The position numbers were made by a program, and so were the translations under genes. Shown in pieces: positions 2,670 to 5,419 of a stretch of DNA of 10,204 bases; the first letter of the stretch is position 1, and every line of letters starts with the position of its first letter. The stretch is from a virus. Under the pieces are notes generated by a model. The model was not told the origin of the DNA, ran no database searches, and saw only the letters and a list, made by a program, of their open reading frames with translations. The stretch lies in UHGV virus genome UHGV-0144897. One strand, written 5' to 3'.

Positions 2670-3212
2670 TCACATAACCCCCAGCATCGATGTAACCATT
2701 GTCATCAGCGGCCCCACCTGCTCCGGCATGAGGCGGAACAGCGACGCTATACCCTCGCTTACCTCTTTCAGCTTCTGATGCTCCGGAGCGTCCAGCAGCA
2801 CGGCCTGCTTTGCTTCGGCACACTCTTTCATCGCAGAGGCGATCAGCGACATCGTGTCGTTCTGCGGTGCCAGGCGGTTGCGAAATTCCAGTGGAAGTAC
2901 CGCCATGATTGCGGGCGTCAGCTGGCGCACATTCTCGCGGTACTGCTCTGAGTCGAAGCGGTTATCTAGGAAGCGAAAAAGTTTCTGGCGCGCCCTGCTG
3001 ATGTCTTCCGGGAAGCTGATGGCGGTCCCGCCCTGCTCCCGGTATTCGTTGATGATCAGCGCCGAAACGACGTCCTGATTGTCCAGCGCCGATGACCATG
3101 CACGGACCGCATCGCGGATCTTTTCGTGGCCTGGCGCCGCTTTAGGTTGAGCGCGGTTTATCATTGCTCCCGGGTGTATTCCGGTATTGTGTTGATACGC
3201 AAGTGAATGCAT
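2670..3212 (-). CDS. cII-slot regulatory protein (180 aa), family uncertain (possibly the larger CII-like/YdaT-like type)
   Basis: ORF-track 2670..3212. ATG 3212..3210 with AAGGGA RBS, 30 nt downstream of the Cro-like stop. The position between cro-like and O-like genes matches lambda cII, but the protein is about twice as long and not recognisably lambda CII. Confidence 0.6.
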   Translation of the reverse strand: MHSLAYQHNTGIHPGAMINRAQPKAAPGHEKIRDAVRAWSSALDNQDVVSALIINEYREQGGTAISFPEDISRARQKLFRFLDNRFDSEQYRENVRQLTPAIMAVLPLEFRNRLAPQNDTMSLIASAMKECAEAKQAVLLDAPEHQKLKEVSEGIASLFRLMPEQVGPLMTMVTSMLGVM

Positions 3213-3241: not shown

Positions 3242-3469
3242 TTAAGCGGCTTTTGGTTTACTGATTTCAAGAATCTGGTTTTCGGTAAACTGACCACCAG
3301 ATGCAGCTGCGATTTTGGACGCATAGCCTGTTTCGCCTGTGTAGTCGGTGCGCGGTAGGCAACCGCTATTAATCCACTTGTAAATAGCGCGGGGAGTGCG
3401 CCCGCAAGCCTTCGCCACCACCGGTACACGGATTTGTTTGATGATGTCGCCAAGGTTTTTAGGTTGCAT
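3242..3469 (-). CDS. Cro-like / YdaS-like HTH DNA-binding protein (75 aa)
   Basis: ORF-track 3242..3469. ATG 3469..3467 with GAGGG RBS. HTH-like VVAKACGRTPRAIYKWINSG. Divergent from the cI-like repressor across an operator-rich region. Confidence 0.75.
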   Translation of the reverse strand: MQPKNLGDIIKQIRVPVVAKACGRTPRAIYKWINSGCLPRTDYTGETGYASKIAAASGGQFTENQILEISKPKAA

Positions 3470-3485: not shown

Positions 3486-3559
3486 TTGAACTGTAAGTAC
3501 ATATTATGTCGGAACTGATAGTTCACGCAAGTGATATTATGATTGAACCTATGGTTCAA
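3486..3559. promoter_or_regulatory. OR-like control region: three TGAAC/GTTCA-type operator dyads with divergent PR-like and PRM-like promoters
   Basis: Site A TTGAACTGTAAGTACAT (3486..3502); site B GAACT-GAT-AGTTC (3512..3524); site C TTGAACC-TAT-GGTTCAA (3543..3559). Minus-strand promoter: -35 TTGCGT (3530..3525), 16-bp spacer containing site B, -10 CATAAT (3508..3503). Plus-strand candidate: -35 CTGATA (3515..3520), -10 TATGAT (3538..3543). Site A recurs near-identically in the pL-like region. Confidence 0.45.
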
Positions 3560-4261
3560 GAAGAAAAAGCGCGTACAGAGTTTTCCCAACGGCTAGCGCT
3601 GGCCTGTGATAAAGCTGGTTTACCTGCTCATGGTCGTCAGGCTGAAATTGCAAAGCGAATGAAGCTAACACCAAAAGCAGTAAGCAAGTGGTTCAATGGG
3701 GAGGCTATTCCAAGACGTGGCAAGCTGCAGGAACTGGCGGCTATAATTGGCACATCCTCGTCTTACCTATTAGGCGATAGTGCAGCAGATGGCATATCTG
3801 AAGGGCATATGGCAATGAGGGACGATTCTTTCCGTGTAGACGTTTTTGATATTCAAGCTAGCGCTGGGCAAGGAATTCTTGTGCGAGATGAGTTCATTGA
3901 AACAATCAGATCCATAGAGTATTCAACCGAAGAGGCTCGCGCCGTATTTGGTGGGCGCCCAGCTGACCACATAAAAATGATTGCCGTGAATGGCGATTCT
4001 ATGTCTGGCACGTTCGAGCCGAGAGACCAGATCTTCGTCGACGTGAGCATCGACTGCTTTGACGGTGACGGCATATACATTTTCGTTCTGGACAATGATC
4101 TCTACATAAAGCGCCTTCAAAAGCAGCACAAAAAATTAGCTGTGATTTCAGACAACAAAAAATATGAGACCTGGTATATCGAGGATGGTGATTTTTCATC
4201 TCTTCGGATCTGCGCGAAGGTCTTGGTAAGCCAATCTAGAGCATATAGATTTCATAGCTGA
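3506..4261 (+). CDS. cI-like prophage repressor (N-terminal HTH, C-terminal S24/LexA-type autopeptidase)
   Basis: ORF-track 251 aa. HTH GRQAEIAKRMKLTPKAVSKWFNGEAIP resembles the lambda cI recognition region. S24 motifs AVNGDSMSG (Ser) and LYIKRL (Lys). No SD before any candidate ATG (3506, 3539, 3551); start may be leaderless at 3551, inside dyad C. Confidence 0.9.
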   Translation: MSELIVHASDIMIEPMVQEEKARTEFSQRLALACDKAGLPAHGRQAEIAKRMKLTPKAVSKWFNGEAIPRRGKLQELAAIIGTSSSYLLGDSAADGISEGHMAMRDDSFRVDVFDIQASAGQGILVRDEFIETIRSIEYSTEEARAVFGGRPADHIKMIAVNGDSMSGTFEPRDQIFVDVSIDCFDGDGIYIFVLDNDLYIKRLQKQHKKLAVISDNKKYETWYIEDGDFSSLRICAKVLVSQSRAYRFHS

Positions 4262-4860: not shown

Positions 4861-4923
4861 TAAATCAAACCAGCCCCAACCCACCTCGCCCAATCAATAA
4901 AAAATTCAAAAATATTTCTCCTT

Positions 4924-5012
4924 AAAGTTCATAAAGTTAATCGTATATGAACTTTCCATTCACAAACAATGTACTTTTGGTACTTTACATGAATGAACTA
5001 TTGGTACATTAT
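4924..5012 (+). promoter_or_regulatory. pL/OL-like region: operator-like dyads and candidate leftward early promoter
   Basis: Inverted repeat AAAGTTCATA (4924..4933) / TATGAACTTT (4946..4955). TGAACT-N4-GTACAT at 4994..5009 matches OR site A (3487..3502). Candidate -35 TTTACA (4984..4989) and -10 CATTAT (5007..5012), 17-bp spacer. GTAC-containing repeats TTGGTAC at 4977 and 5001. Confidence 0.35.
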
Positions 5013-5230
5013 CAATCCATCGAAACGAAACATCGACAGCTGAGCGAAGTTAGCCAGCGGCGGAGTGGAGTTAGATGACCGCTTAGAGCCGCCACTTGAA
5101 TTTCAGCAGGTGACGGGGAGCGCGAAGGGTGAAGCGGACGTGAGAGCGTTGGCGTGACCAGCTGGAACTAAAGGTTTACCAGCAGCTCTTTGCGAGGGGC
5201 TGACGGTAAACAAACAGAGAGGTGGAAATC

Positions 5231-5419
5231 ATGCTTGGGTGTGAAAAGTGCGACCACGGATTCGTGTTCACCAGATGCTGTTCTGGTCTTGCTGAAATGT
5301 GTGGATGCGGCGGAATGCCGGTTCAGGCCACTAATTGCAAGAACTGCAATCCAGAGAATAAAGAGCCGGATGACGCGGAGACAGAATCGCTTCTCCAGTA
5401 TGTCGAATGGGTCGATTGA
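5231..5419 (+). CDS. small Cys-rich protein (62 aa), putative zinc-binding; first gene of early-left operon
   Basis: Part of ORF-track 5222..5419 (GTG start). ATG 5231 has AGAGAGG 8 nt upstream. MLGCEKCDHGFVFTRCCSGLAEMCGCGGMPVQATNCKNCNPENKEPDDAETESLLQYVEWVD has 9 Cys in CxxC/CC/CxC arrangements and an acidic C-terminus. Confidence 0.6.
   Translation: MLGCEKCDHGFVFTRCCSGLAEMCGCGGMPVQATNCKNCNPENKEPDDAETESLLQYVEWVD

Follow-up and report, generated by a model that had tools for sequence, protein, structure and literature searches.

An OL operator region and candidate pL promoter of probable HK022-type immunity in a lambdoid prophage

We analyzed a 10,204-nucleotide stretch of viral DNA (UHGV-0144897; the whole stretch is hereafter called the window) and found that positions 4917-5012 very probably represent the OL operators and pL promoter of a lambdoid prophage that carries an immunity module of the phage HK022 family. 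From the sequence, we infer that the operator of its cI-type repressor is a 15-bp pseudo-palindrome, TGWAC-N5-GTWCA. A preliminary description of this DNA had proposed an operator code common to both control regions on the basis of a shared 16-bp motif, TGAACT-N4-GTACAT. The two copies, TGAACTATTGGTACAT at 4994-5009 and TGAACTGTAAGTACAT in OR site A at 3487-3502, are indeed present and agree in both hexamers, and the sharing of a code between OL and OR stands; however, the unit of that code is the 15-bp sequence rather than the 16-bp pair of hexamers. The broader proposal of an OL/pL region under a common repressor is supported by a phylogenetic footprint, natural domain swaps, position, and homology to phages HK022 and HK75. 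Since cI, Cro, OL, and OR are all homologous to their HK022 counterparts, the earlier reading appears to be right and the system to be a relative of a known one. The finding of an OL/pL region with repressor operators is therefore correct and ordinary, the system being related to one already characterized. The identity, number, and spacing of the operator sites and their overlap with the promoter are supported by sequence, conservation, and homology, and what is said below on the function of OL and pL rests on 55-60% homology at the protein level.

The exact TGAACT-N4-GTACAT pattern occurs twice in the window. When the 15-bp form TGAACNNNNNGTWCA was searched with up to one mismatch, five loci were found (3487, 3511, 3544, 4948, and 4994), all inside the two control regions, and no operator-like site at this stringency was present outside OR and OL across the whole window. 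Counted over both strands, this amounted to 10 matches, compared with a mean of 1.1 in 200 dinucleotide-preserving shuffles, none of which reached 10. The shared motif could conceivably be a chance likeness of two A/T-rich intergenic regions, with 4984-5012 being no regulated promoter at all; the region is A/T-rich, the candidate pL scored only 9/12 in a consensus scan, and matches of this kind were no more frequent than in shuffled sequence. We regard this as extremely improbable, since not one of the 200 shuffles contained even a single exact copy of the 16-bp pattern, the motif is kept over ~90 loci from several genera, in covariation with the repressor's HTH domain, and the region is homologous to annotated HK022 operators.

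At the sequence level, OL1 and OL2 overlap a sigma-70-type promoter that reads away from cI, with early-left-type genes downstream (Table 1). The preliminary description had named TTTACA and CATTAT as a candidate pL overlapped by the shared motif, and this was borne out: the hexamers are 17 bp apart, they align with the annotated -35 and -10 of HK022 pL, and they form the only promoter-like site that the consensus scan found on the + strand of the 360-bp gap at 4861-5221. OL1 matches TGAAC-N5-GTWCA exactly and aligns with the oL site annotated at 2201-2215 in HK022 and with oL1 of HK75. OL2 aligns with HK022 oL 2225-2239 and HK75 oL2; it was missing from the earlier operator list, which correctly held the site at 4994, and emerged as one copy of a 20-nt direct repeat shared with the 4994 site (4968-4987 / 4992-5011). 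Across all relatives, no block is more strongly conserved than OL2, whose left half reads TGAAC in loci L082 and L084. The 24-bp spacing between OL2 and OL1 is equal to that between OR sites A and B. Invariance was assessed on a representative set of 23 divergent loci (15 + 8), in which no change occurred in the OL2 and OL1 half-sites, in the -35 bases TTTAC, or in CATnnT at the -10, while the operator spacers, the bases between elements (including the five between the -35 and OL1), and the flanks were variable. Just downstream, CAT at 5018-5020 is also invariant in relatives.

Table 1. Operators, promoter, genes, and other features of the control regions, with positions in the window
Feature	Position	Strand	Remarks
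Cro-like repressor	3242-3469	-	75 aa; matches phrog_35, transcriptional repressor
OR site A (OR1 equivalent), TGAACTGTAAGTACA	3487-3501	strandless	Adjoins cro; fixed offset in relatives; aligns with HK022 oR site
OR site B (OR2 equivalent), GGAACTGATAGTTCA	3511-3525	strandless	Start 24 bp beyond that of site A
OR site C (OR3 equivalent), TGAACCTATGGTTCA	3544-3558	strandless	Spacer contains the probable cI start, ATG 3551
cI-type repressor	3551-4261	+	HTH_3 and Peptidase_S24 (Pfam); 236 aa from ATG 3551
Cargo gene, 195 aa	4273-4860	+	Between cI and OL, in the position of lambda rexAB
Weak upstream site, TCTCCTTAAAGTTCA	4917-4931	strandless	TCTCC-TTAAA-GTTCA; GTTCA is the core of the left palindrome arm
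Inverted repeat, AAAGTTCATA-N12-TATGAACTTT	4924-4955	strandless	Arms 4924-4933 and 4946-4955
Weak upstream site, TGAACTTTCCATTCA	4948-4962	strandless	TGAAC-TTTCC-ATTCA; TGAAC is the core of the right palindrome arm
OL2 operator, TGTACTTTTGGTACT	4970-4984	strandless	Start 24 bp before that of OL1; final base doubles as the first of the -35
pL promoter (candidate)	4984-5012	+	-35 TTTACA 4984-4989; 17-bp spacer; -10 CATTAT 5007-5012; predicted start near A5019
OL1 operator, TGAACTATTGGTACA	4994-5008	strandless	Between pL -35 and -10; overlaps the -10 by 2 bp
pL transcript leader start	5016-5064	+	Mosaic module common to phi80 and HK639
Probable put-like antiterminator RNA	5095-5211	+	Two stem-loops; HK639 similarity and predicted fold

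A protein search of phage genomes showed the repressor to be ~60% identical to cI of coliphages HK022 and HK75 (60% over 233 aa for HK022), and the recognition-helix region is nearly identical (TPKAVSKWFNGE in the window, TPKAISKWFNGE in HK022). Cro is 55% identical to HK022 Cro. The cI translation contains a SAG/QG-type cleavage region and GDSM and KR motifs, and a search of PDB sequences with cI returned only a distant HTH domain named LexA. The mechanically called cI ORF starts at 3506, and RefSeq places the starts of relatives at positions equivalent to 3506 or 3539. ATG 3551 is the only triplet in the spacer of OR site C that never varies, the two bases before it being variable, and the HK022 cI coding sequence starts inside oR3 (see also the supplement of PMC8053113). 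Since ATG 3551 is invariant and HK022 uses the same start, cI is probably 236 aa long and translated from a leaderless, or nearly leaderless, message. A candidate -10 for cI, TATTAT/TATGAT (3535-3543), is preceded by TG at 3532-3533.

The comparative footprint was drawn from five annotated relatives and 93 loci that were found with the repressor protein. Over ~90 related loci, the half-sites, the two promoter hexamers, and the spacing were constant, and the variation lay in the spacers and flanks. At every locus with a related N-terminal repressor domain, the three OR sites kept both their offsets and their half-sites, and only their spacers differed. In 88 of 92 loci, a TGWAC-N5-GTACA site lay downstream of OR site B at a distance of 890-3156 bp, and the OR-OL distance varied with the cargo genes that follow cI. 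One of the four exceptions (L011, from Brenneria) carries an OL-site variant in which the half-site types are exchanged; at the other three, the fetched DNA ended or showed no TGWAC-N5-GTACA site. Two to four exact TGWAC-N5-GTWCA sites were present wherever the N-terminal domain was related (59-100% identity), with C-terminal identities anywhere from 41 to 100%. Six loci of Xenorhabdus and Photorhabdus, at which the C-terminal domain is 50-77% identical and the N-terminal domain unrelated, held none. Therefore, these natural domain swaps show that the motif goes with the DNA-binding domain of the repressor, not with the C-terminal domain, and with the Cro that is inherited alongside it. The two domains of the repressor have had separate histories: among loci L008-L100, some are 70-82% identical to the product of 3551-4261 in the N-terminal domain and only 41-51% in the C-terminal domain, and at Xenorhabdus/Photorhabdus loci with a C-terminal domain 70-77% identical the N-terminal domain is unrelated.

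By analogy with characterized systems, repressor dimers bound cooperatively at OL2 and OL1 would exclude RNA polymerase from pL, which is predicted to read rightward from ~5019, through a put-like antiterminator leader, into the early-left genes. Repressor at a distal upstream site, 53 bp or ~five helical turns from OL2, might contact the repressor at OL2/OL1 with the intervening DNA bent out, and the whole OL set may in turn loop to OR, 1.5 kb away, tightening repression. Cro could be expected to use the same operator sites, and RecA-stimulated, SOS-induced self-cleavage of cI would free pL.

The two upstream sites are weaker than OL1 and OL2. The site at 4948-4962 has one mismatch to the pattern; its left TGAAC is invariant in all 49 unique window-like OL regions, its right half, ATTCA, is less conserved and lost in some relatives, and its homologue is annotated as oL3 in the GenBank record of HK75 (L102, 3247-3261). 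The left half of the site at 4917-4931 matches the consensus at only three of five positions. Its GTTCA is likewise invariant (49/49); T4917, A or T at 4919 (47/49), and C4921 are mostly kept, and a full site, TATAC-N5-GTTCA, occupies the equivalent position in L057 and L061. The sequence CTTAAAGTTCA at this site is identical between the window and HK022 and, by coordinate arithmetic, its center is exactly 53 bp from the center of OL2 in both. The same value is given for OL2-OL3 of HK022 in PMC8053113, and it is from this figure that we infer the identity of HK022 OL3. The assignments of the third operator thus conflict, the HK75 record pointing to 4948-4962, through its homologue, and the 53-bp figure to 4917-4931. 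Since both upstream sites carry one perfect half, OL may hold four sites.

The preliminary description had also pointed to an inverted repeat with 10-bp arms and a 12-bp spacer, said to be built from the TGAAC half-site. The repeat lies where it was placed and is the sole spaced perfect repeat with arms of at least 10 bp in the 10.2-kb window. Its half-sites are real, the arms being equal to the extended half-site (T/A)ATGAACTTT, of which ATGAACTTT recurs in OL3, OL1, and OL2; however, the two pentamers face outward (GTTCA-N16-TGAAC), so the repeat is a pair of extended half-sites and not an operator of canonical geometry. Both pentamers and the 16-bp gap between them are invariant in the 49 window-like regions, and between OR sites B and C the same outward-facing geometry recurs with a gap of 18 bp. 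The pair is wholly absent from one group of relatives (cI ~56% identical) and is thus not essential to the family.

The 32-bp palindrome might instead be a hairpin, a signal for termination or processing where the cI-ORF195 transcript ends, or else a cruciform, its arms then not being half-sites. As RNA, the repeat forms a 10-bp stem (-7.6 kcal/mol, z = -4.2), it lies 60 bp after the ORF195 stop codon, and in the relative 30EVA1 and in HK022 the innermost arm position is changed on both sides in a way that preserves complementarity. However, the pairing is poorly maintained in the 49 unique relatives. The outer arm pairs are kept in only 35/49, 44/49, 46/49, 44/49, and 38/49 of the sequences, mostly one-sided changes break them (in 3-14 of 49), and compensatory changes were limited to isolated two-sided cases. 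Pairing is all but absent at the positions further in than the arms (9/49 and 3/49), the five core pairs are constant and therefore uninformative, and in distant relatives (L061, L059, and L082) only the pentamer core is still complementary. The stem is also A+T-rich, the loop is 12 nt long, no U run occurs in the sequence that follows (CCATTCAC), and the arms are the same extended half-site as in the operators. We therefore favor protein half-sites over a hairpin, which is very unlikely given the invariant pentamers, the one-sided arm changes, the A+T-rich stem, and the lack of a U run. An intrinsic terminator at this place was rejected, as the repeat has neither a G+C-rich stem nor a short loop nor a U run, and a terminator scan made no call.

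Half-sites for the repressor account for the arms; they leave unaccounted for T4938 and a purine at 4939, each present in 49/49 sequences within the otherwise variable spacer of the palindrome. One reading of these bases is that 4927-4939, including the left arm, is (also) a site for IHF, which, together with an A/T tract at 4895-4917, would stimulate pL from about -85, the position of the IHF site at lambda pL; such a site would be compatible with repressor binding. When the IHF core WATCAANNNNTTR is aligned with 4927-4939, T4938 and R4939 fit its TTR. Stimulation of lambda pL by IHF was reportedly described in a 1998 study. Relatives that lack the outward-facing pair match the core at 8-9 of 9 positions (AATCAATACATTA), always with the same offset and at the homologous location, where L082 and L090 share TCATAACGTTGC with an 11-bp difference in length. 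In the window itself, however, the core matches at only 6/9 positions, and random A/T-rich 76-mers gave a best match of at least 7 in ~89% of trials. Moreover, the window-like relatives regularly depart from the core at three positions (G, T, and T) that form the operator half-site in its stead, and position 4937 is T in only 17/49. An IHF site in the left arm is thus unlikely, if more plausible than a hairpin. Loci L013 and L084-L100 have only OL2 and OL1 and a different type of C-terminal domain, and their IHF core, AATCAATACATTA, lies ~56 bp upstream of OL1.

Returning to the repressor half-sites, a tentative extension is that in the Enterobacter/E. coli/Citrobacter branch the upstream part of OL was rebuilt as the outward-facing pair, giving four sites where HK022 has three, and that this layout co-evolves with the C-terminal domain; we hold this to be possible and not probable. 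The two half-consensus sites would then be filled only through the 53-bp micro-loop, OL-OR looping, or both. The geometry appears to co-vary with the type of C-terminal (cooperativity) domain of the repressor, and in the branch with a different C-terminal domain an IHF site would replace the outward-facing pair. If true, operator layout and oligomerization domain would co-evolve as a unit.

Downstream of pL, the immunity-specific block seems to end at the predicted transcription start, since relatives with the same OL have other leaders from ~5021 onward, with at least five unrelated families following the conserved (C/T)CAT. The leader of the window is 100% identical to phi80 over 49 bp, directly after the -10 and from exactly where the 'O-L region' of the phi80 record ends, and HK639 likewise has this sequence after its 'putative pL'. 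A mosaic joint thus lies at the predicted pL start, ~5013-5021, and phi80 shares the leader despite its different immunity type. Further on, 5168-5224, with stem-loop II (5174-5211), is ~95% identical to the second stem-loop of the 'putL-like antiterminator RNA' of HK639, while stem-loop I (5095-5173) differs from that feature. The leader is predicted to fold into two stem-loops (z = -2.95) and probably encodes a put-type antiterminator RNA; an Rfam scan of the whole window at E-values up to 1 gave no match, including for this leader. No N or Nun gene was evident downstream of the leader. Within the leader, a direct repeat of 80% identity, GCTGAGCGAAGTTAG at 5039-5053 and GCGGAGTGGAGTTAG at 5060-5074, has its copies 21 bp apart. 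The first ORF after the leader (5222-5419) specifies a 65-aa protein that is rich in cysteine and has several CxxC-like pairs (phrog_28167), and E. coli relatives have a gene for an 'ECs_2282 family putative zinc-binding protein' on the opposite strand just downstream of the homologous leader.

The gene order around these elements is canonical for a lambdoid phage. Leftward lie the Cro-like gene, a YdaT-family gene in the cII position, and O-like and DnaC-like replication genes; rightward are the repressor, the 195-aa gene, the 360-bp gap with OL/pL, small genes, and an ExoX-like nuclease. The YdaT-family protein is encoded on the - strand at 2670-3212, where HK022 and HK75 have a CII-type activator, and the immunity module therefore appears to be itself mosaic left of cro. 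Neither Pfam nor PHROG gave a match for the 195-aa cargo gene. Omnitron, ET846, and HK022, in which OL directly follows cI, lack it, and relatives carry different cargo at this place; the gene could be an exclusion or defense gene expressed from the prophage.

Taken together, the analysis fixes the regulatory map of this prophage, namely the probable cI start, OR1-3, OL1-2 with the upstream sites, a predicted pL start, and a probable put-like leader. Its placement in the HK022 immunity family implies that cross-immunity with HK022-type phages is possible. The ~90 natural variants provide a phylogenetic footprint of an operator family that has so far been studied in one phage, and they include natural swaps of the repressor domains and two alternative layouts of upstream OL. 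Beyond the map and the variant set, no new principle emerges.

Among known systems, the PaaR2/YdaS/YdaT switch of CP-933P (PL933P, OL1-3) resembles the window in being lambdoid, with a YdaT-family equivalent of cII, a repressor gene without a leader, and operators that recur at OR and at a pL further downstream (PMC8630535). However, its operators are 18-bp palindromes of the GTTTAGTAA type and its repressor gene is followed by the paaA2-parE2 toxin-antitoxin genes, and CP-933P was rejected as the closest system because its operators are different. The site reported for YdaT, TTGATT-N6-AATCAA (PMC9986795), was also looked for by eye and set aside, the AATCAA at 4891 being without a partner. 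Phages phi80 and HK639, which share the start of the leader with the window, have other immunity types (the repeats of phi80 are of the AAATCAAC type), and only the transcribed module downstream of pL is common to them and the window.

Phage lambda and the window share the layout cro / OR / cI / cargo / OL-pL, several pseudo-palindromic operators that overlap pL, and a repressor that joins an HTH to a LexA-like self-cleaving domain. The strong OL sites of lambda, like those of the window, are 24 bp apart. Long-range looping between OL and OR is a feature of lambda that may, by analogy, apply to the window. In contrast, the operator sequences are unrelated and differ in length (17 bp in lambda, 15 bp in the window), the sequence similarity of the two repressors is low, and the third OL site, adjacent in lambda, is probably distant (53 bp) in the window. 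The window also lacks the N gene of lambda, and its antitermination is probably RNA-based.

The closest likeness is to HK022 and HK75, compared here through their GenBank records (X16093 and NC_016160, respectively). The HK022 record annotates two 15-bp oL sites, the -35 and -10 of pL, three oR sites, and a cI start inside oR3, and the HK75 record annotates oL1-3, pL, putL, oR1-3, and OFR. The control regions of the window align base for base with these at OL1, OL2, TTTACA, CATnAT, CTTAAAGTTCA, and oR1-3. In common with the HK022-type region, the window has 15-bp TGWAC-N5-GTWCA operators, OL1 between the -35 and -10, OL2 adjoining TTTACA, 24-bp spacing of both OL2-OL1 and OR1-OR2, CTTAAAGTTCA 53 bp from OL2, the probable cI start codon in OR3, and, probably, a put-type RNA after pL. 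For HK022 itself, PMC8053113, citing Carlson & Little (1993), describes experiments that showed cooperative binding of CI at neighboring operators of both OR and OL, loop-like DNase I patterns in the 53 bp between OL2 and OL3, and in vivo looping between OL and OR. The window differs from these phages in several respects. No extra operator like the OFR that HK022 and HK75 have was found downstream of cro in the window at up to one mismatch, CII of HK022 is replaced by the YdaT-family protein, and the pL leader is phi80/HK639-like rather than HK022-like. The host is apparently Enterobacter, unlike that of the coliphage HK022. OL and OR are ~1.5 kb apart, compared with ~0.7 kb in HK022, as a result of the 195-aa cargo gene between cI and OL. 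Lastly, the right arm of the inverted repeat is a perfect TGAAC with an ATTCA partner in the window, whereas HK022 has TGAGC...ATACC, and it is this difference that gives the window its perfect 10-bp-arm palindrome and, possibly, four OL sites.
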